IMG/VR virus record: IMGVR_UViG_3300032893_000069
Location: 1-50,097 of that record
DNA: 50,097 nt
Direction: 5' to 3' (one strand)
From: a virus
Lineage: Duplodnaviria > Caudoviricetes
Shown: one piece after another, positions 1 through 42,644 of the stretch
How positions within the stretch are numbered: position 1 is the first letter of the stretch
How the letters are laid out: each line of letters opens with the position of its first letter
The notes under the pieces: model-generated
The model's input: only the letters and a program-made list of their open reading frames with translations
Database searches by the model: none
Told to the model about the DNA's origin: nothing
Position numbers and translations under genes: made by a program

Positions 1-590
1 TTCGTGGAGCCTTTTCCTTTCAGTACTCTTACGCAAACACTTTACTTCTTTACTCCCTTGCTTCACTCCCTGTCAATAGGACTTTAGTACTGCAAGGAAA
101 ACACTGCACGTTATCTATTTAGCCAACACCTACGATTCACCTTCTATCGAACCGTAACTACTTTACAACTACCATCGCATCCTTGTCGGATGCTCACGTT
201 TTCGGTTGCGCATCACATATTCACATCGTCCAGCACCGCACTGTTTTAAAGTTAACGGGCAATGGTGAGAGTACGCGCCAATAGAGACGTTTACCTGCGT
301 CTCCATCGGCGCGTTTCTCGGTGTTAACGGTATAAAGGAGCCGAGTTTTCGCGAAGATAGACACTCTTCCCACCAGACTTGGTGTAGCGCTTTCGCGCCG
401 GTCCATGTTTTACGACGCCCCTGGTAGACGCGCAGCTCGATTTAACTCGAACTGTCCCCGCACAATTTGGTAGAAACGGCGAATGCACTTTCGACAGACG
501 CAGAACTTCGCCTCTGTAGTGGTTGTCGCCGGGATCGTGTGGGAACGTGTAGCGTGTTTACTGCGTCGGAAAGGATAGCATGATAGTAAA

Positions 591-947
591 TCATGCCGCA
601 CCTCTCGAAACTTTTGTGTGCTCTCGGACTAAGCGCGCTCGGGCCGCTTCTAATACGTCCAGAGAGTAATGCGGTATTTCATTTACAACTAAAATTCCAG
701 TTCCACCACAAATTGCGCACTCTTCTAAAACTTCTCCATCGTCACACTCATCACATCCGGCACCTTCACACGAAGGGCAGTCTTGATAATACTCACCGAG
801 AGAGTCGCAATTTTCACATTCGGGATTTTCTTTTAAGTGTTCGATGCAGTCAGCGAGAGAATCAAGGAATCTTACTGCGAGGATCTGGCGCTCATCGCCA
901 AAAGTCAACCTGCGGCGCAACTCTTTTTTTGCTTGCGCTTCGGTCAT
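591..947 (-). CDS. hypothetical protein with DnaJ-like CxxCxGxG zinc finger
   Basis: CENC..CPSCEGAG.CDEC..CAICGGTG; ATG at 947 overlaps the stop of the upstream ORF (ATGA). Confidence 0.6.
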   Translation of the reverse strand: MTEAQAKKELRRRLTFGDERQILAVRFLDSLADCIEHLKENPECENCDSLGEYYQDCPSCEGAGCDECDDGEVLEECAICGGTGILVVNEIPHYSLDVLEAARARLVREHTKVSRGAA

Positions 948-1096
948 ATTGACCACTCCACTTTTTGAAGTGACCCGACCGTAGAATCTTTTATTTCAAA
1001 ACCGCAGTGAGGGCATGTAAATGGGAAATCTTCTTCGGTAACTGGTCCGTCGCCCATGTCTATGTCGTCACCACAATTAGGACAAACACACTTCAT
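944..1096 (-). CDS. small zinc-ribbon protein (50 aa, below the ORF track cutoff)
   Basis: Hand translation MKCVCPNCGDDIDMGDGPVTEEDFPFTCPHCGFEIK...; two CxxC pairs; coupled to the next gene. Confidence 0.6.
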   Translation of the reverse strand: MKCVCPNCGDDIDMGDGPVTEEDFPFTCPHCGFEIKDSTVGSLQKVEWSI

Positions 1097-1352: not shown

Positions 1353-1523
1353 GTGAAGAGTGGAGAACGTAAACGAGTGATGTTAGCAGCGCGGGTTTCA
1401 GTAAAAGTTAGGGACGCTGCTCGGGAAGTTGCGGCACAGGAAAGGCGCAGCCTCTCGAACATGGTCGAACTGCTGCTGGAATCCGCGCTCGCTGCGAGGA
1501 AGAACGGGAAGGCCGGGAAATGA
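1353..1523 (+). CDS. Arc/CopG-like ribbon-helix-helix regulator (56 aa, not in ORF track)
   Basis: Hand translation ..RVMLAARVSVKVRDAAREVAAQERRSLSNMVELLLESAL..; stop overlaps the next ATG. Confidence 0.7.
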   Translation: MKSGERKRVMLAARVSVKVRDAAREVAAQERRSLSNMVELLLESALAARKNGKAGK

Positions 1524-1879
1524 GCGACAGGCGCGGATTTTTGAAAACGCTACTCACGCTCCCGCTGATAGCGGGTATCGCTGCTAAATTTTCCTGTGAA
1601 TTTGAACTGCCAGTTGGGTGCGATTTATCAATGACTTCGCTCCACGAAGTTCTGCGGCGAGGTGATGAATTAAAACTTGGCTGTCCACGAAAACTGCTCA
1701 TCGGTCCAGAGAATATATTTCCCGCGAGAGAGATACTCGGCTGGCCTCGGTACACGGCGGACAGTGAAATTAACTGGATTACCAGCCAGAATCTATTTTA
1801 CGAAGTCACGGGCAGATATCCGATGAACACTTGGGCCGTGCAGTTTGATCGCGGCGTCATCAAAAGCGTAGGTCCGTGA
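1520..1879 (+). CDS. Tat-signal protein resembling the axial domain of this phage's major capsid protein
   Basis: MSDRRGFLK twin-arginine motif plus hydrophobic stretch; mature part aligns by eye to MCP aa ~184-269. Confidence 0.65.
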   Translation: MSDRRGFLKTLLTLPLIAGIAAKFSCEFELPVGCDLSMTSLHEVLRRGDELKLGCPRKLLIGPENIFPAREILGWPRYTADSEINWITSQNLFYEVTGRYPMNTWAVQFDRGVIKSVGP

Positions 1880-1990
1880 TGTACACCAAGCGGCCACCCA
1901 GGACAGCCGCAGCCGCTTATCGTTCGGCTGGACACCAAATCACGAACAGAAGAGATTGTGAAATCCACGTTGGCGATGTGAGGAGAAGAG

Positions 1991-2575
1991 ATGCCAGTTG
2001 AACTGATTCAGCAATCAGAAAACATCCTGTGGGTAGGCGAGACAGGATTCGAAGCCAAAGGCGAACGCATCGCTATCATGCAGGATGAGCACAAGTCCGG
2101 CTACGAATGCTTGCGCTGCATGGACAAAGACAAGCGAACGCTGGACGGGAAAGAAGTATCGGTAATCACCTGCGAAGAGTGCGCCGGCGAAGGCAAGCGG
2201 CAAAAGGCAGGAAACGCAGACCTCACAGTAAAATGCTCCGACTGCGAAGGACGCGGCTACCTGCCCTGCCCGGATTGCGGCGGCAAGGGAACATCCACGG
2301 GGATCGTGCTGCCAGAGTCCAGCAAGGGTGAGCCAACCACGGGGATTGTGGTGAGCAAGGGGCCGGACGCAAAGCTGTACGACCTGGGGCATCGCGTGAT
2401 GTTCCCCAGTTACGCGGGGCATTTGTTCGTGGTGAAGGGCAAGGACAAAAAGAGCGGGAAAGAGAAAACCGTTCGCTTGCGCTTCATCAACGAAGGCGAC
2501 GTGATCGCGCAGTTGTACGGCGAGTTGGAGTACAGGTCGCTGGTTAGCTCGCAGGCGTTGTTTACCAACGAATAG
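1991..2575 (+). CDS. groES: GroES/Cpn10-like co-chaperonin with inserted DnaJ-type zinc finger
   Basis: GERIAI..., GIVLPESSKGEPTTGIVVSKGP, GHRVMFPSYAG and FINEGDVIA match GroES; four CxxC(xGxG) motifs at aa 40-100; SD-like GAGGAG upstream. Confidence 0.8.
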   Translation: MPVELIQQSENILWVGETGFEAKGERIAIMQDEHKSGYECLRCMDKDKRTLDGKEVSVITCEECAGEGKRQKAGNADLTVKCSDCEGRGYLPCPDCGGKGTSTGIVLPESSKGEPTTGIVVSKGPDAKLYDLGHRVMFPSYAGHLFVVKGKDKKSGKEKTVRLRFINEGDVIAQLYGELEYRSLVSSQALFTNE

Positions 2576-2580
2576 GAAAC

Positions 2581-2664
2581 TTTCATGGATGCCCATTGCT
2601 ATCCTAACGAAATGCCCGCGACACGGATGGGGGCCATCGGACCATCTGGTGGGCATCCATGAAA
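2581..2664 (+). promoter_or_regulatory. 15-bp perfect inverted repeat covering the terminase start codon
   Basis: TTTCATGGATGCCCA (2581-2595) pairs with TGGGCATCCATGAAA (2650-2664). Confidence 0.7.
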
Positions 2665-5400
2665 TGGAAAATACTCCCGGTCCCACCAGTAGCGGACGAC
2701 TATGAATTACACTTCCGCAACACGCGGCTAAACAGCCTCGGCTCGCTCTACTGGTTCGCAAAGCACACTCTCGGCTACTCCCGCCTTACCACGCTCCATA
2801 AAGACCTGTGCAAGAGCCTTGAAAACGAGCACCTGTTTTTGGTGATGGAAGTTCCGATGTCGCACTTTAAAGCACTGGACATTCGTACTCCGATACCAAC
2901 ACCCGATGGCTTCAAGCTAATGGGGCACATTAATGTTGGAGACACTGTTTTTGGATCGGACGGTATTCCTGTAAAAGTAACAGGCGTCAGTCCGATTTAT
3001 TTTTCTTCTGATTGCTACGAGTTGGAGTTCACTGGAGGGGACAAAATTGATTGCGATGCCGGACATCTTTGGGAAACGCAATCGCTTGAAGATTACGACA
3101 GAACCAAGCCGAGAATGTATCGCTCAGTGATAAGGACCACAAAAGAAATTTCTTCAAGGATTGATTACGGAAAACAGCGTAATCACAGAGTTAAACTTGC
3201 AAAATCCATTCAATTACCCGATGTGGATTTGCCAATTTCTCCATATGTCCTTGGGTGCTGGCTTGGAGATGGAACGTCTGCGAACGGTTCGATCACTATT
3301 GGGAATTCGGACGAGTGGCTTGCTCACGAAATACGGCGCGAGGGTGAACCGTTAACAAAGGCAAATACCCCATTGAAATGGTGCTTCTATGATGGGAAAT
3401 CAAATTACAGGGATTCTAAAGTCAGGAAATTTGCTTTTGTAACTAGGCTTAGAAAGCTGGGAGTCTTAAATAACAAGCACATACCGCAAGCCTATCTAAG
3501 GTCATCAGCCAGGCAGCGATTGGCCCTCTTACAGGGGCTAATGGATACTGACGGCCACGCTTCCAAATTAGGGCAATGTACTTTTTCAAATACAAACAAG
3601 AATCTAGTGGTGCAAGTAAGGGAATTGGTTTGCTCGCTAGGTCTGAAATGCGGGGAATTGAGAACGTACAAGTCAATGTTGAATCGGAAACACGTTGGAC
3701 TGTTTCACGTCATAACATTTTACTCATTCAAGGATTTTCCTCCATTCCGTATGCCTAGAAAAGTTGCACGGCTGCTAACGCGGTCTCCGCAGTCCATGCA
3801 GTCTTATCGCCATATACGGGCTGCTAGGAGAATCGGGCAACGCTACGTGAAGTGCATCATGGTGGATTCTGCTGACTCTCTTTATTTGGCAGGGGAAGGA
3901 TTTATCCCGACTCACAACACGCGACTTGGAATTTCCCTGTCTATCTGGTGGGCACTTCCATTCGATGAGTACGACGAGAAGCACATGCGCGAATTAGGCT
4001 ACGGGGATGAGTGGATACGCTACATGAAGGCGATCCACGATCAGAATCACCGGACGCTCATCACGCACGAAATTGCTTCCCAGGCAACGAATATCGGGCG
4101 CGACGTGAACGACTGCTACATGAACAACGACACGTTCCGCGCCACGTTTAAGGAAATCATTCCCGATTCAGAGTGTACGTGGAACAACTCCGAAAAGTTC
4201 CAGAAAAGATTGCGCGGCGGAGACGCTTCAACCGGAACATTCGTGTACCGTGGAGTCGGCCAAGCGTTGCAGGGCATCCACGTAAACTCCATCATCCAAG
4301 ACGACAACTTTGGAAAAGAAGCGCAAGACTCCCTGCTCAAAGGCGATGGGCGCATAGTCGAAGATTTGATTAAGTGGCACAAGCAGGTGGGCACGCGCTT
4401 TGACCCGAAGGTGAAGCGAGATCGGCGGCAAGTGGTCATTGGCAATAAGTGGGCGGCGCTGGACCTGAACGGCTACATCAAGAAAAATCAGCCAGAGTTT
4501 AAGTTTGAAAGTCACAGCGCGGAGGGCGGGTGCTGCAAGCGTCACCCAGCAGGAAAGCCTATTCTCCCCGAAGAGTGGACTATTGAACTGCTCCACAAAG
4601 AACGTGACAGGCTTGGGAAGCGAGACTACTCACACTTCTACCTGAACGTGGCGATGCTGCCGGAGGAGCAACTATTCGGTAGTCAGTGGTTGCGTGAATA
4701 CCGCTTTCGGGAAGCAGATCCCCGCTTCTCCAAAGACGACTTGCGCAATGCGCTGATGGTGGAGCACAAGGTCTACGAGGGGACGGCACTCAAGGACTTC
4801 ATGGCCGCGACGCTGGAAATCACAATCATCGTGGACCCGAACCATGCGCGGAAAAACAAGCGCGAGAAACACGTAATCTGGAGCATTGGCTTCGATCCCG
4901 AATCTTCGCGCATCTACTTGCTATCGCTGTGGCAAAAAGACTCCACCTACTCCGTGCTTGTCGAAGAGATGTACAGCCAGTACGCCAACTGGACAATGCG
5001 CAACGGGTTGAAGCAGTTCAAGACTCCCACGGTGTACATGGGGAAAACAGCGCGGGAACTGCTCGCGTTTTATCTGTCGGAGCGCGACAAGCGGGAAAGG
5101 ATTCCGCTGCAAATTGAAGAGTTTGAAGATGACGACTCGCTTGCTGCGATGAAGAACCGGATCGAGTCGCTGGAGCCTACGTTCAAGGCCGCGCAAATCT
5201 GGTGCAATCCAGAGCAGGGCCAGCAGAAAGAATTTGTGGAGGACTACGAGAACTATCCAGCAGGAAAACTGGACGCGCTAGACGTGCTGGGCCACTACCC
5301 GAGAGTAGTAGAGATTGGCGACTCGAAGAATGCGCGTAAGTTCTTACAGGACCAGATGGCAGAGTTTCAGGGCAGACAATCAGGGATTGCAGGGTATTGA
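2659..5400 (+). CDS. terL: terminase large subunit, intein-containing
   Basis: Spliced Walker A PMSHFK/T, Walker B-like IIQDD, coupling motif VIGNKW, nuclease IIVDP...DALD; lies upstream of the portal. Confidence 0.85.
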   Translation: MKWKILPVPPVADDYELHFRNTRLNSLGSLYWFAKHTLGYSRLTTLHKDLCKSLENEHLFLVMEVPMSHFKALDIRTPIPTPDGFKLMGHINVGDTVFGSDGIPVKVTGVSPIYFSSDCYELEFTGGDKIDCDAGHLWETQSLEDYDRTKPRMYRSVIRTTKEISSRIDYGKQRNHRVKLAKSIQLPDVDLPISPYVLGCWLGDGTSANGSITIGNSDEWLAHEIRREGEPLTKANTPLKWCFYDGKSNYRDSKVRKFAFVTRLRKLGVLNNKHIPQAYLRSSARQRLALLQGLMDTDGHASKLGQCTFSNTNKNLVVQVRELVCSLGLKCGELRTYKSMLNRKHVGLFHVITFYSFKDFPPFRMPRKVARLLTRSPQSMQSYRHIRAARRIGQRYVKCIMVDSADSLYLAGEGFIPTHNTRLGISLSIWWALPFDEYDEKHMRELGYGDEWIRYMKAIHDQNHRTLITHEIASQATNIGRDVNDCYMNNDTFRATFKEIIPDSECTWNNSEKFQKRLRGGDASTGTFVYRGVGQALQGIHVNSIIQDDNFGKEAQDSLLKGDGRIVEDLIKWHKQVGTRFDPKVKRDRRQVVIGNKWAALDLNGYIKKNQPEFKFESHSAEGGCCKRHPAGKPILPEEWTIELLHKERDRLGKRDYSHFYLNVAMLPEEQLFGSQWLREYRFREADPRFSKDDLRNALMVEHKVYEGTALKDFMAATLEITIIVDPNHARKNKREKHVIWSIGFDPESSRIYLLSLWQKDSTYSVLVEEMYSQYANWTMRNGLKQFKTPTVYMGKTARELLAFYLSERDKRERIPLQIEEFEDDDSLAAMKNRIESLEPTFKAAQIWCNPEQGQQKEFVEDYENYPAGKLDALDVLGHYPRVVEIGDSKNARKFLQDQMAEFQGRQSGIAGY
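2872..3918 (+). mobile_element. intein (class 3-type) with LAGLIDADG homing endonuclease, 349 aa
   Basis: Starts ALDIRTPIPTPDG, block B DAGHLW, endonuclease motifs LGCWLGDG and LQGLMDTDG, block F VKCIMV, ends PTHN followed by T. Confidence 0.9.
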
Positions 5401-5654
5401 ACAAACGGACCAGACGTTGGCTGCATCAATGCGGGAGGAAATCCGGCTACGTCAGTTTGCAGTCAGCCAACGCCGCAGCGGCAAAAATGCAATTCATCAA
5501 TCCCTTAGAGGTCAAAACGTTTGTTGCCTATAAATGCGATTACTGCAAGTATTGGCACGTTGGCCGTACCAAACGCATCCACAGGCCGAACTTTCCCGAT
5601 GGCTGGGAGCGAGCAGATTTGACTTATCACGCATTCTTGACTGTGCTAAAGTGA
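5397..5654 (+). CDS. small phage protein with putative Zn-binding motif
   Basis: C..K..Y.S...A and YKCDYCKYWH; coupled between terL and portal. Confidence 0.55.
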   Translation: MNKRTRRWLHQCGRKSGYVSLQSANAAAAKMQFINPLEVKTFVAYKCDYCKYWHVGRTKRIHRPNFPDGWERADLTYHAFLTVLK

Positions 5655-5658
5655 GCGC

Positions 5659-7635
5659 ATGGCAACTGCCATTACCACCAGCATCGAGAAAGCCGACCGG
5701 GACGACTTCTCGCCCTGTACCATAGAGTTTGGTGCCGATGTCGAAAAAGAAATCAACCATTTCCTCGAACGCCACATCAACGCACGCCTCCAGCAACTCC
5801 GCAACATCCATACCTCCACCCTGCCAAAGTGGAAGCGCATCGCTGAGGGCAGGCCGCTGCAAAAATCCCGCTCGTTTCCGTTCGAGGGAGCTTCTAACCT
5901 AGTCCACCAGACAGCCGGCGAAGCGATTGATGACCTGGCTGCGCGTGTCTTACAGCTTACGTGGATGACTTCCCCGATTGTGCTGTATCGCTACTTCACC
6001 GAAGCGGTGGAGCAGAAGATTGCGGAAGCGTACGCTAAACGTGCAAAGACGCTGATTCAGTTCATGGACTACGCGGCCTACGATCCCCGCGAACTGAACC
6101 TGTACCCGCGAGAAAACAAGTGGTGGTATGACGGCGCGGTGTGCGGACGGTCTTGGGTGATTGTGGCACCGGAGAGCAGAATCGAATCGGTCCACATCGG
6201 CTACGCGGAAGGCAGCAAGAAAGCCGAGTTTGAAAAGAAAACGCTCTACGAAGGTCCGAAGGTAATCAACGCGGACTACGAAGATATTTTGTACGACCCC
6301 GATGTGAAAGTGTTTGAGGAGACGGATCCGCTATTCCGCCGCTGCACACTGACGCAAGCGAAGATTCGGGAGCGCGTGTTCAAGGGAACGTACCGCAAAG
6401 CAGATGCAGAAAAAGTTTTAGAGCAACCCGACCAACCCAACGAAGTAAAGCAGCGCGAAAAGCAGAAAAAAGGAATCACCACTGACACATCGAATGACCG
6501 CACGATGTCCACGTGGGAAATCTACGAATGCTATTTTTCTTGGTGGCACAACGATAGGAAGTTCCGGCTCATTGCGTGGTATCACCTAAAAACGCGCAGA
6601 ATCCTGAACTGCGTTTACAACTTCATTCCCGACAATCAAATTCCGATTCTTGAAACGCGGTTGACCGTAGACGGGCGCGGCTTCCCCGATATTTTGGAGC
6701 ACTACCAAGAAGAAATCTCCACGGCTAAAAACCAGCGCAATGACACAATCACAGTGTCCATGTGGGGCATCAACACAGTAGACCCGAACAACAAAAACTT
6801 GGGGCCAAACTTCCGCCTCGCGCCGAACGTGTTCCTGCCCGTGAAGAAAGACCAGTTCATGCACTACGATGTGGGCAACGCTGCGTTCGCTGGCCTGTCG
6901 CTGGAAAACGAGCAGGCCATGATTATGCAGGCGAAGGAACGCGCTGGCGTGGGTCCTGCAATGTCTGGAGCAGGAGCGGGTGGAACAAACAAGAAGGGCC
7001 AATACTCCGCGATGGGCACGCTGTCCGTGATGCAGGATGGCAACTCCCGCAACGATCACCGAACATCAGACTTCCGCCACTCGCACGTTGCGCTGATGTC
7101 GCTACTTACAGACTTCTACGGATTCTTGGGATTGGGCCGCAAGGGAAGCACATTTGGGCTGGACGACAAGATTCTAGAGCAGGCGCTTGAAGATTACCTC
7201 TCGCGCAAGATGCGGATTCCAACCCGCGCCGCGTCCGCAAGCCTGAACCGCGAAATCAGCAAGCAGAGCCAAATCATTCTCAACCAGGCGCACTCTGCCT
7301 ACGTGAAGGAAATCAGTTCGCAGTTACAGGCATTGATGAACGAAACTTTGCCGATAGAGTACCGCGAATGGTTGCTCGGCGTTGTGAAGGCAAAGACGAT
7401 GCTGATGCAGCAAATCTTCAAAGACTTCCAAGTGTCCGACAATCCAGCAGAATACGTGCCCGATATTCAGTACGAAATCAAAAAGCCCGAAGGAGCACCA
7501 AATGGCTCGCCGCAAGCAGGACCCCAACCAACTCCAATCAATGCGATGGCCACTGCTCTTCAAGGACCCGGAGAAGGCGGAATCCCTCTTCTCGGCGGTG
7601 GGATGGGTGGACCTGCTGGCGGACCTCCGCGCTAA
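5659..7635 (+). CDS. portal protein (P22/podovirus-like)
   Basis: 658 aa, follows terL, helical with Gly/Pro-rich C-terminal tail typical of podovirus portals. Confidence 0.75.
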   Translation: MATAITTSIEKADRDDFSPCTIEFGADVEKEINHFLERHINARLQQLRNIHTSTLPKWKRIAEGRPLQKSRSFPFEGASNLVHQTAGEAIDDLAARVLQLTWMTSPIVLYRYFTEAVEQKIAEAYAKRAKTLIQFMDYAAYDPRELNLYPRENKWWYDGAVCGRSWVIVAPESRIESVHIGYAEGSKKAEFEKKTLYEGPKVINADYEDILYDPDVKVFEETDPLFRRCTLTQAKIRERVFKGTYRKADAEKVLEQPDQPNEVKQREKQKKGITTDTSNDRTMSTWEIYECYFSWWHNDRKFRLIAWYHLKTRRILNCVYNFIPDNQIPILETRLTVDGRGFPDILEHYQEEISTAKNQRNDTITVSMWGINTVDPNNKNLGPNFRLAPNVFLPVKKDQFMHYDVGNAAFAGLSLENEQAMIMQAKERAGVGPAMSGAGAGGTNKKGQYSAMGTLSVMQDGNSRNDHRTSDFRHSHVALMSLLTDFYGFLGLGRKGSTFGLDDKILEQALEDYLSRKMRIPTRAASASLNREISKQSQIILNQAHSAYVKEISSQLQALMNETLPIEYREWLLGVVKAKTMLMQQIFKDFQVSDNPAEYVPDIQYEIKKPEGAPNGSPQAGPQPTPINAMATALQGPGEGGIPLLGGGMGGPAGGPPR

Positions 7636-10410: not shown

Positions 10411-11373
10411 GTGGCCGGAAACATTCTTGTGCGCAACACCTTCCCACCGCTCCTTGCGGCTGGTCTTCGTTACGTATTTTGGCAAGCCACTGATCTCAAA
10501 GAGCATGCGCCGCAGTACACGCACTACATCAATGAGATGACATCGGAAGATGCCTACGAGATTGACTACGAACTCTCGGGCACTGGACCGATGCCGATGA
10601 TGCAGGAAGGCTCCGCGCCGGCTGCGGACGGCATCATCCAGGGCGGCACCCGGAAGTACGTACACATCCAGTACGGACTCCTGACGGAAGCCACGCGCCA
10701 GCTTGTCGCGGACGACAAGTACGGCATCATTATGAACGTGCCGAAGTCTCACGCACGCTCCGCGCTGTACGCGAAGGAAGCGGTTGCGGCCTCGCTGTTC
10801 AACCTCGGCGGGACCTCCATCACCACCACCAACGGTGCGACGCTGTTCAACACCGCGCAGCCCTTGATGGGCGGGTCGCAGGCAACCACGCTGGCCCCGA
10901 ACATTTCCACGATCATCAATTCGGCTGGCACCTATCCGAACCGGCCCACCCCCGACTCGGACCTGACCAATACTGCCTTGCAGCAAGCCATCACGATGAT
11001 CGCGCTGCAACCGGATGACCGCGGCATCCCCATCCACGTGAAACCGAAGTATCTGGTCCACGCGCAGCAGAACCGCCGCAACGTGCGCGAACTGCTTGGC
11101 TCGGGCGGCGTGCCGGGATCTGCGAACAACGAATTGAACTGGCTCCAGGGCGAGTCGCTGACGGGCCTTGAGTTGAACTACCTGACCACCCCGTTCGGGT
11201 GGGGGTTGCTCACCGACAAGGAAGGGCACATGCTCAAACTTTACGATAGAGAGCCGTTGATGGCGGCAACCGACGACGACTTCAAGACAGAAGTTTTGCT
11301 CTTCAAATCGACGCAACGTTTCAGCGTGGGCGCGACGAGCTGGCGTGGGACCTGGTGGTCTTTCGGAAGTTGA
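10411..11373 (+). CDS. major capsid protein (HK97 fold, Mu gpT-like family)
   Basis: EG...Y.H.QYGL...TRQLVADDKYG, LFNTAQP, PKYLV, RFSVGATSWRG; strong GAGGTG SD. Confidence 0.85.
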   Translation: MAGNILVRNTFPPLLAAGLRYVFWQATDLKEHAPQYTHYINEMTSEDAYEIDYELSGTGPMPMMQEGSAPAADGIIQGGTRKYVHIQYGLLTEATRQLVADDKYGIIMNVPKSHARSALYAKEAVAASLFNLGGTSITTTNGATLFNTAQPLMGGSQATTLAPNISTIINSAGTYPNRPTPDSDLTNTALQQAITMIALQPDDRGIPIHVKPKYLVHAQQNRRNVRELLGSGGVPGSANNELNWLQGESLTGLELNYLTTPFGWGLLTDKEGHMLKLYDREPLMAATDDDFKTEVLLFKSTQRFSVGATSWRGTWWSFGS

Positions 11374-17546: not shown

Positions 17547-18020
17547 ATGAGGCCAACTACACAAGAAGAAAAATTCTGGCGTCACGTCGATAAGAAGGGG
17601 ACTGACGAGTGTTGGGAATGGCAAGGCTCACTCAGGAAGGGATACGGGTTTTTCAAGCATCACGAAGATGGGAGGCCGCGAAAAATTTCAGTCCACAGAT
17701 TTTCGTTTGAATTGCATAAAGGGAAAATGGATGCTGGAAAACAGTGCTGCCATACCTGTGACAACCCGAAGTGCGTTAATCCCCGCCATCTTTTTGAGGG
17801 GACAGGGATGGACAACGTTCGAGATGCGATGGAGAAGGGACGTAGGACGCAGAATGGCGAATTGAACAAAAGCAGGAAACTTGACCCTGCTAAGATTAGG
17901 GGAATTAGGCTCTACAGGCGGCAAAAATACACGCAACAAAACATCGCCCAGAGGTATAATGTGTCCGTTGCGTTGATTGGCCAGATACTTCGTGGGAAAA
18001 TCTGGACGCATGTGAGGTAA
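17547..18020 (+). CDS. free-standing HNH endonuclease with C-terminal HTH
   Basis: FWRHVDK...CWEWQG...HRFSFELH...CHTCDNPKCVNPRHLFEGT..DN. Confidence 0.9.
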   Translation: MRPTTQEEKFWRHVDKKGTDECWEWQGSLRKGYGFFKHHEDGRPRKISVHRFSFELHKGKMDAGKQCCHTCDNPKCVNPRHLFEGTGMDNVRDAMEKGRRTQNGELNKSRKLDPAKIRGIRLYRRQKYTQQNIAQRYNVSVALIGQILRGKIWTHVR

Positions 18021-41667: not shown

Positions 41668-42005
41668 CAGCGTCCGACTCCCCACCTACGCAGAAACTCT
41701 TTGGCCTCTCCCCGCTCGATCTGCCCGTTAGAGAAGCGTAGCAGCCTAAAACCTTGCATCTGTGCGGTATTCTGCTTAACGTAGTCATCTTCCAAGGCTG
41801 CGCCTCGCTTGTGCCCTTTGCCTCCCGGCCTGACGCCACCATCTGCCTCAATAAGAATGCGTAGGTCGGGCAGGTAGACATCGGCTCTCCACTTTCGGTC
41901 AGGATTAAACTCGACCTCGTACTCAATGCGCAAAGACTTGGACAGTTCCCGTAGATGAATACCCAGCAACACTTGTGCCTCGCTTCTTTTATCTCTTTTT
42001 GGCAC
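41667..42005 (-). CDS. PD-(D/E)xK endonuclease (DUF559/Vsr-like)
   Basis: EVEFNPDRKWRADV...IEADGG...KQNTAQMQGFRLLRF; start estimated. Confidence 0.75.
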   Translation of the reverse strand: MPKRDKRSEAQVLLGIHLRELSKSLRIEYEVEFNPDRKWRADVYLPDLRILIEADGGVRPGGKGHKRGAALEDDYVKQNTAQMQGFRLLRFSNGQIERGEAKEFLRRWGVGR

Positions 42006-42408
42006 GTTTCTTTGCCCATTTCCGATTTCTGATGCGCACACAGAGCTTACAGCACCTATCTCCTCGACGATTCCAATATTCAGTCTTTGCAAAATAATGC
42101 CCCCGGATACAGCGAGTCTTGATGTTGACCATAGATTGAACTTTAGGGGTTGCCCAGCGACAGTTCTTGGGCGTGTAGTTTCCTTTGCTGTTTATCCGAT
42201 CTAGCGTGTGTCCCGCAGGTCGCACGCCCATGTCCGCAAGGAAGTTAACGAAGTCATTCCAACGCTTACAAACCTTTATTCCCTTGCCGCCATACCACTC
42301 CTTGTAACCAGGTGCGCTTGGGTTTTGGCACCGCGACCGCATTGATACCCAACTGCGATACGTCGGAGACATCCAACCGACCCGAGTGTGATTGTGCCTT
42401 ACCCACAT
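41989..42408 (-). CDS. HNH homing endonuclease
   Basis: YRSWVSMRSRC...YGGKGIKVC..W..F..FLADMG..P..TLDRINSKGNYTPKNCRWAT. Confidence 0.85.
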   Translation of the reverse strand: MWVRHNHTRVGWMSPTYRSWVSMRSRCQNPSAPGYKEWYGGKGIKVCKRWNDFVNFLADMGVRPAGHTLDRINSKGNYTPKNCRWATPKVQSMVNIKTRCIRGHYFAKTEYWNRRGDRCCKLCVRIRNRKWAKKRAKKR

Positions 42409-42569
42409 TGGTCGGCCTTCTTTTCGTAGTACCGCGCCAGTGCTGCATTGGACACTTTTACCGCGCACGCTTCGCAGTGGCGGCGACCCGGACGGCGCTT
42501 GACTTTTCCGCATTTCGCGCATAAACCAGCTTTCAGCCGCTTGATCTCCATACGCGCTTGACGTTTCAT
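42399..42569 (-). CDS. basic zinc-finger protein (56 aa, not in ORF track)
   Basis: MKRQARMEIKRLKAGLCAKCGK...HCEAC; begins 6 nt after a -10 box. Confidence 0.6.
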   Translation of the reverse strand: MKRQARMEIKRLKAGLCAKCGKVKRRPGRRHCEACAVKVSNAALARYYEKKADQCG

Positions 42570-42575
42570 GGGCAC

Positions 42576-42644
42576 ACATTACCACACGGCATGGCGTTGT
42601 CAAGTGAAATTTTGCTTGACACGCTTTCTACTTTGTGCCACTAT
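42576..42644. promoter_or_regulatory. divergent sigma70-like promoter pair
   Basis: Minus strand TTGACA-16-TAATGT (42603-42576); plus strand TTGACA-17-CACTAT (42616-42644); coincides with the strand switch. Confidence 0.65.

Follow-up and report, generated by a model that had tools for sequence, protein, structure and literature searches.

The gene at positions 1991..2575 encodes a protein, here called P0001, in which the barrel of the co-chaperonin GroES (also named Cpn10) is interrupted by a cysteine-rich domain. The stretch of DNA that was analyzed (the window; 50,097 bases) makes up an entire IMG/VR virus record, which is rated 100% complete by CheckV and has a GC content of 50-56%. The gene is followed by those for the large terminase, the portal protein and the major capsid protein (Table 1). 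Other genes of the window, identified using the PHROG and Pfam profiles, encode a tail-fibre-like protein, HNH endonucleases, a methyltransferase, an Erf-like annealing protein and a clamp-loader-like ATPase, while no tRNA genes were found. Promoter-like hexamers, facing both ways, are seen at 1247-1292, and no convincing terminator is seen between the GroES-like gene and the terminase gene, where both statements refer to consensus matching only.

Table 1. Segments of the GroES-like gene and selected genes downstream of it (positions in the window)
Feature	Positions	Strand	Basis or remark
Shine-Dalgarno-like AGGAG	1981..1985	+	5 nt 5' of ATG; read from sequence
Whole gene, putative zinc-finger GroES P0001	1991..2575	+	ATG start, 194 aa plus stop
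N-terminal extension, aa 1-18	1991..2044	+	AF2 secondary structure, alignment A2
First barrel strand, aa 19-33 (FEAKGERIAIMQDE region), counterpart of GroES strand 1	2045..2089	+	VIA-align
Inserted DnaJ/BSD2-type cysteine-rich domain, aa 34-100	2090..2290	+	Cys conservation, profiles, Foldseek
C-terminal arm of mobile loop, aa 101-118, TSTG-IVL-P-ESSKGEPTTG	2291..2344	+	Cpn10 profile from position 18
IVL, aa 105-107, counterpart of GroEL-binding hydrophobic tripeptide	2303..2311	+	Family conservation
Remaining Cpn10 barrel, aa 119-176, with lengthened hairpin KGKDKKSGKEK	2345..2518	+	Pfam, VIA-align, alignment A2
GPDAKLYDLG, aa 124-133, short connection at the roof-hairpin place of cellular GroES	2360..2389	+	
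C-terminal tail, aa 177-194	2519..2572	+	Alignment A2, model confidence
Large terminase (with putative intein)	2659..5400	+	PHROG terminase families; 84 nt downstream of the GroES-like gene
Portal protein	5659..7635	+	Pfam SU10_portal 34.1 bits, cutoff 30
Major capsid protein	10411..11373	+	Pfam Phage_capsid_4 2e-11; PHROG major head protein

Just upstream of the GroES-like gene, an open reading frame (ORF) at 1520-1879 (+) encodes 119 residues. It starts with MSDRRGFLKTLL, which we take to resemble a twin-arginine (Tat) signal, and continues with a hydrophobic stretch; neither Pfam nor PHROGs gives a match, and a 49%-identical homologue is found on the opposite strand near the GroES-like gene of one related contig (L011). 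The minus strand at 591-956 encodes a 121-residue Cys-rich protein with four CxxC motifs in about 40 residues (CENC, CPSC, CDEC and CAIC, the last followed by GGTG). This protein weakly matches DnaJ_CXXCXGXG (0.004), is 33% identical over 54 residues to the finger and loop of P0001, and has no match among the PHROG families; a similar stretch is also present in two of the related loci (L029 and L031). Zinc-ribbon-like proteins are encoded at 944-1096 (-) (50 residues, Zn_Ribbon_1 25.7 bits, cutoff 25) and, between the terminase and portal genes, at 5397-5654 (+) (85 residues, matching phrog_15216, a family with no assigned function).

The large terminase holds an insertion of about 349 residues, at about aa 72-420, which is missing from the 63%-identical terminase of another contig (L001). 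The insertion starts with ALDIRT, ends with THN followed by T, and includes a LAGLIDADG_3 domain (aa 286-330); judged from these sequence features, it looks like an intein with a homing endonuclease, the first residue of which would be Ala, not Cys or Ser. HNH endonuclease genes are located at 17547-18020 (+) and 41989-42603 (-), and the presence of an HNH gene amid the structural gene block suggests a mobile homing element.

Homologues of P0001 were collected in three alignments. A word-indexed protein search yielded 31 proteins, including the query, with 32-72% identity, several of which are named "co-chaperonin GroES (HSP10)" by JGI. Alignment A1 comprises 24 of these 31 and excludes the near-duplicates P0003, P0005, P0006, P0008, P0010 and P0014 as well as a 118-residue fragment (P0026). 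Alignment A2 combines eight finger-bearing members with four plain, finger-less phage GroES proteins (P0155, P0164, P0173 and P0179), and alignment A3 comprises 111 proteins chosen for at least four CxxC motifs, the core motif and a length of 150-260 residues.

The Pfam profile Cpn10 (PF00166) matches aa 99-153 of P0001, i.e., profile positions 18-81 of 93, at 26.4 bits (cutoff 21.1). The match of P0001 to co-chaperonin GroES in PHROGs is weak (3.7e-4), and NCBIfam returns weak DnaJ and GroES matches, far under the cutoffs. When compared with the PDB, the profile of A1 matched Cpn20 (5e-13), GroES (1.7e-6) and BSD2 (1.4e-4), while that of A3 matched Cpn20 (9.3e-21), GroES (3e-12) and E. coli GroES 1aon_O (2.6e-4). 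Cpn10 is matched by 100 of the 111 A3 members at E<=0.001, and the ESM Atlas neighbours of P0001 are viral Cpn10 clusters.

Two AlphaFold2 (AF2) models of P0001, calculated from the 24 aligned homologues of A1 (model 1; pLDDT 83.9, pTM 0.66) and from the 111 of A3 (model 2; pLDDT 89.0, pTM 0.75), display identical secondary structure. Foldseek candidates were re-aligned to the model using VIA-align, and the 16 best entries are all Cpn10, GroES or T4 gp31, with Z of 8.9-11.4; for 3nx6 (Z 11.4), 65 residues were aligned at an rmsd of 1.4 A. These alignments begin at model residues 16-20, corresponding to GroES chain residues 1-5, and extend over model residues ~19..176 and the whole GroES chain (residues about 2..96). 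Because this range spans both the strand before and the part after the Cys block, the two flanks (aa 19-33 and 101-176) make up one barrel, as an earlier reading of the DNA (the sequence-only reading) had proposed. The models thus portray P0001 as an insertion into a GroES barrel, not as a fusion. Outside the barrel, short strands are predicted at residues 6-9 and 12-15 of the N-terminal extension, where N11 and G16 are nearly invariant in A1. The C-terminal tail has pLDDT values of 68 and 53 in its last two blocks (model 2). At the end of the first barrel strand, D32 is present in all sequences of A1 and A2 and in at least 90% of those of A3. A fold search of BFVD returned viral GroES entries only (TMq <=0.38), and for no entry could the whole two-domain architecture be demonstrated; several of the matches are 139-200 residues long and may carry inserts.

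The inserted domain opens with the family signature SGYEC. The sequence-only reading had described four cysteine motifs, all of which are found at the places it gave, i.e., within aa 40-100 (nt 2108-2290): CLRC (C40/C43), CEECAGEG (C61/C64), CSDCEGRG (C82/C85) and CPDCGGKG (C93/C96). GxG is present in three of the four motifs and missing from the first. By analogy to DnaJ, we assume two zinc sites, of which site I would be composed of C40, C43, C93 and C96, and site II of C61, C64, C82 and C85. All eight Cys residues are invariant or at least 90% conserved in A1, the members of which are 34-72% identical to the query, and a chance cysteine pattern was rejected on these grounds. Because A3 was selected on CxxC, the Cys invariance seen there is partly by construction; besides Cys, D32, G98, G118, G124, G133 and G143 are conserved in A3. 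The pLDDT of the finger is 75-91 in model 1 and 87-97 in model 2, and the finger tip is the most variable part of the domain in A1 and A2.

The same reading had suggested a check for split Cpn10 matches together with matches to the DnaJ zinc-finger profile. The Pfam Cpn10 match of P0001 is that to aa 99-153 described above, and the DnaJ match stays under the cutoff for P0001 itself: Pfam DnaJ_CXXCXGXG (PF00684) covers aa 54-100 at 20.3 bits, with a cutoff of 32.7. Another family member, P0041, clears that cutoff (40.2 bits), and at E<=0.001, DnaJ_CXXCXGXG is matched by 40 and BSD2_CRD by 23 of the 111 A3 members. The A3 profile also matches the DnaJ cysteine-rich domain 1exk (1.1e-6) and BSD2 6ekb (1.7e-5), and Foldseek finds the same two structures using the middle part of the P0001 model (prob 0.97 and 0.99, respectively). 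These family-level matches indicate that the insert is homologous to the DnaJ cysteine-rich domain, even if P0001 alone is sub-threshold. A Pfam scan at E<=10 found no J domain in P0001, nor were DnaJ C-terminal domains found in the Pfam scan; because the J domain is lacking, the protein is not a DnaJ.

The insert takes the place of the mobile loop's N-terminal arm, and it stops 8 residues ahead of IVL-P (aa 105-108). The segment TSTGIVLP (aa 101-108) directly follows the Cys domain, in agreement with the earlier proposal that the insert immediately precedes the equivalent of the GroEL-binding motif. In GroES, the role of the hydrophobic tripeptide in GroEL binding is well established and is described in PMC5649160. 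The tripeptide was counted in 154 of 180 proteins, which were anchored on the post-loop barrel motif, i.e., independently of the tripeptide; excluded were 26 proteins that were too short, had no anchor or carried fewer than two CxxC motifs ahead of it. At the first, second and third positions of the tripeptide, I, L, V, M or F is found in 152, 130 and 124 of the 154 proteins, respectively, and Pro is the next residue in 139. In a minority of members the middle (24/154) or last (30/154) position is polar. The hydrophobic tripeptide and Pro are retained down to about 25-30% identity. The block aa 101-110 of P0001 displays the lowest internal pLDDT, 67 in model 1 and 81 in model 2, and this combination of a conserved sequence and a lack of confident packing in the models fits an exposed binding loop, as expected. 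A complex prediction using P0001 (A1) and residues 191-376 of Swiss-Prot CH60_ECOLI, run without controls and with E. coli GroEL as a stand-in that may differ from that of the phage host, gave 0.11 and 0.02, where the mark is 0.32; we give these scores no weight in either direction.

The last CxxCxGxG motif is usually found 16 residues ahead of the PTTG turn, which would place the zinc site of the first and last motifs right beside the tripeptide. We refer to this putative site as the clasp. Members with two CxxC motifs (P0131, P0140 and the locus L033:5914-6405) keep exactly the clasp at the tripeptide, i.e., the first and last CxxC only, and these one-zinc forms are devoid of the finger tip. 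That nothing but the clasp is kept in them suggests that it is the central element of the innovation. In P0131 and P0140, about 40 residues are also inserted at the position expected for the roof hairpin.

In P0001, the roof hairpin itself is missing: 55 residues span 64 positions of the Pfam Cpn10 profile, and HMMER alignments with GroES chains show a gap of 9-10 residues at the roof position of the P0001 family. The four plain phage GroES proteins of A2, which were found as distant matches, are 85-93 residues long; they begin at the first barrel strand and have an ordinary short loop followed by the motif of Gly, three hydrophobic residues and Pro. These finger-less, roofless proteins are the nearest plain relatives of the zinc-finger family. 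The N-terminal extension (8/8 finger-bearing and 0/4 plain sequences), the C-terminal tail, the Cys domain, which separates D32-E33 at the end of strand 1 from the tripeptide, and an extended late hairpin are found in the finger-bearing members only. The roof hairpin, on the other hand, is absent from all 12 A2 sequences. The shortened roof noted in the sequence-only reading is consequently real, but because the loss is common to the plain relatives, it is not peculiar to the hybrid. The roof hairpin is also not essential for membership of the Cpn10/GroES family because accepted co-chaperonins such as gp31, which is described as roofless in the main text of PMC5649160, lack it as well.

P0001 is not a unique graft but belongs to a large family: an exhaustive search of 1.84 billion cluster representatives yielded 168 at E<=0.001, nearly all of which are viral metagenomic; 67 of them reach E<=1e-10 and 6 reach E<=1e-30. 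Among the 150 representatives listed, some of which are fragments, four CxxC motifs are found in 101, five in 8, six in 7, three in 9, two in 15, one in 1 and none in 9. The automatic label "co-chaperonin GroES" on proteins of this family has the consequence that the insertion is hidden. A tblastn search of P0001 against 50,697 deposited phage genomes gave no match at E<=1e-3 and hence no relative in a cultured phage. Among 185,579 species genomes, relatives are present at three loci in two MAGs, and the family is essentially viral. One of these loci is a one-zinc form within a 638-kb contig labelled uncultured Gammaproteobacteria; the other two are on short contigs of a Scandinavium MAG, the binning of which may be wrong.

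Some of the more distant or longer proteins have other architectures. P0151 (214 residues) and P0169 (175 residues) are distant matches with a tandem double Cpn10, resembling the arrangement of plastid Cpn20, and no Cys motifs. In P0089, P0148, P0180 and 14 others (262-299 residues), the finger-bearing GroES is preceded by N-terminal extensions of 100-150 residues, for which no Pfam match was found. A weak match to P0001 residues 66-190 (E 1e-5, 26-27% identity), which may be spurious, is found at L028:4027-4434, within an ORF annotated as a head maturation protease.

A scan of viral contigs found 31 loci, 27 of which have E<=1e-11, and the family spans two phage lineages with different gene neighbourhoods. 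In 15 of the 27 loci (L001-L014 and L019), homologues of the terminase and portal genes are located downstream, as in the window. For the second lineage, nine of the other 12 loci were annotated (L017, L018 and L025 were left out); a DNA polymerase gene is located upstream in all nine, with a primase/helicase gene directly before the GroES-like gene in eight. Here, the GroES-like gene ends a DNA polymerase/primase module and genes on the opposite strand come next. Both gene positions are ahead of late expression.

These neighbourhoods bear on the idea that P0001 is a small terminase, or another DNA-binding packaging factor, which uses the GroES-like barrel together with a zinc finger. Small terminase genes usually sit just upstream of the large terminase gene, i.e., in the position that the P0001 gene occupies, 84 nt away and in the same orientation, and PHROGs recognized no small terminase in the window. 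However, P0001 displays no terminase-small or helix-turn-helix match in Pfam or PHROGs, its specific match being to Cpn10 with the loop motif included. Moreover, about 2 kb separate the GroES-like gene from the terminase gene in four loci (L011-L014), and in the second lineage the gene comes after the primase, away from any terminase recognized there. The loci with replication neighbours show that the family is not tied to the terminase, and we regard a packaging function as highly improbable.

Neither the 50,097-base record of the window nor any of the 14 records of relatives (including eight that are at least 90% complete) contains a Cpn60 (GroEL) gene, while the same search identified Cpn60 in 14 of 14 control genomes. 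The proposal of the sequence-only reading that the protein is a co-chaperonin has thus gained indirect support from the Cpn10 homology, the conserved tripeptide and Pro, the lack of a phage GroEL and the structural match to gp31. Taken together, P0001 is probably a phage co-chaperonin that resembles gp31, acts with host GroEL and docks through a zinc-clasped loop. Its subunits would form a ring-shaped lid that caps GroEL of the host, which is the presumed partner because no GroEL is encoded by the phage. This lid would help fold phage morphogenetic proteins, with the major capsid protein as a candidate client. The recruitment of particular clients that the sequence-only reading had envisaged (the major capsid protein, the neighbouring Tat-like protein or fibres) is more speculative, as is thiol chemistry of the finger.

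Within such a lid, a domain of the DnaJ/BSD2 type, presumably holding two zinc ions, would take the place of the N-terminal arm of the mobile loop. The two ends of the domain would meet at one zinc site a few residues before IVL, thereby forming a zinc clasp at the tip of the loop. Because the ends of the finger meet beside IVL, the loop tip would be held by a folded knob, not by a flexible arm. The most probable function of the clasp is to extend the loop and shape it in advance, or else to supply further contacts at the GroEL rim, which could change the affinity or the geometry of the cage. In cellular GroES, flexibility of the mobile loop is regarded as functionally important, and a rigid 67-residue domain located 8 residues from the tripeptide might block docking or, when present seven-fold, crowd the cavity.

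A less likely role of the finger is to hold clients, as in DnaJ or BSD2. Such a role could be combined with that of the lid: seven DnaJ/BSD2-like zinc fingers on the rim of the ring would capture specific phage proteins in the unfolded state (capsid, portal) and, while the same loops dock, pass them on to the cavity of host GroEL. We consider this combination rather unlikely; if true, a single small protein would both select clients and encapsulate them, and a virus could reprogramme the client choice of the host chaperonin. Of similarly low probability is an assembly chaperone, or holdase, that functions independently of GroEL. Here, the barrel would be a ring scaffold that displays several DnaJ/BSD2-like fingers, which would bind phage proteins (capsid, portal or others) prior to their assembly, in the way that BSD2 holds the large subunits of Rubisco. 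The resemblance of the finger to BSD2 and to the DnaJ cysteine-rich domain, seen also in the fractions of family members that match the two profiles, is consistent with such a function. The location of the gene beside head genes in one lineage also agrees with a holdase, as do the N- and C-terminal additions, which are confined to the finger-bearing forms and suggest a remodelled protein. However, a GroEL-independent holdase leaves unexplained why the GroEL-docking tripeptide and Pro are conserved in nearly all members and why clasp-only, one-zinc forms persist. In addition, the finger tip, where a client site might be expected, is the part that varies most.

The evidence for GroEL binding (Cpn10 homology, the barrel, the tripeptide and the lack of a phage Cpn60) applies equally to a protein that hijacks or blocks GroEL, i.e., a zinc-clasped lid of high affinity that would outcompete host GroES. 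The outcome would be that host folding is shut down or that GroEL is kept from chaperone-dependent defence systems. A loop that is shaped in advance should bind more tightly, and in the second lineage the gene is found among early or middle replication genes, both of which fit a blocker. On the other hand, gp31, the known phage GroES analogue, is reported to be productive. Folding of the capsid in tailed phages often requires GroEL, and blocking it would therefore be costly for such a phage, which makes this alternative distinctly unlikely.

Few small proteins are as well studied as GroES, and the binding and release of GroEL depend centrally on its disordered mobile loop. In the proteins described here, half of that loop is swapped for a folded, putatively zinc-binding domain, in a family of at least 168 clusters and in two phage lineages. 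This arrangement offers a direct handle on the extent to which the chaperonin cycle relies on a flexible loop and on the ways in which phages retune host GroEL. In addition, a compact, expressible protein becomes available for asking if a module for client binding or affinity can be part of a co-chaperonin itself.

A barrel in common with P0001 is found in the GroES-like domain of medium-chain dehydrogenases (ADH_N; Z up to 8.6), some of which carry a structural zinc lobe. This identity was rejected because the 194-residue P0001 lacks a second, nucleotide-binding domain and because the ADH_N scores are under all Cpn10 rows; ADH_N is weakly matched by 5 of the 111 A3 members. Among viral metagenomic GroES proteins, the main text of Marine et al. 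(2017) reports that GroES-only viral contigs are abundant and describes roof-hairpin deletions and loop variants (PMC5649160). The words zinc, cysteine, insertion and DnaJ are absent from that main text, while the supplementary alignments may hold such sequences; some BFVD entries from the same study are 139-158 residues long and might be of the zinc-finger type. A literature search at the level of abstracts did not reveal any paper in which GroES/Cpn10 has a zinc finger or cysteine-rich insert, and the zinc-finger GroES design apparently has not been described before.

The inserted domain resembles the DnaJ cysteine-rich domain and plant BSD2 in having four CxxC motifs, three of which are CxxCxGxG, and a predicted fold rich in beta-hairpins. 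It differs from both in that it sits inside another fold and in that its first motif has no GxG. With bacterial GroES, P0001 shares the barrel (Z up to 11.4), the first strand and a loop motif composed of Gly, the hydrophobic tripeptide, Pro and a PTTG-like turn. In contrast to bacterial GroES, P0001 has a 67-residue domain with two predicted zinc sites for the N-terminal arm of the loop, lacks the roof hairpin, has 18 extra residues at each of the N- and C-termini as well as a longer late hairpin, and is encoded by a phage without GroEL.

T4 gp31 and RB49 CocO are phage co-chaperonins that work with GroEL of the host. We know of no zinc finger or Cys motif in gp31, and the sequence kinship of P0001, in a comparison made without a gp31-specific profile, is to ordinary Cpn10 rather than gp31. 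At the structural level, gp31 chains match the P0001 model (VIA-align; 2cgt_O, Z 10.4; 1g31_A, Z 9.3), and P0001 is similar to gp31 and CocO in being phage-encoded and roofless, in having an altered and longer docking loop and in being produced by a phage that has no GroEL.
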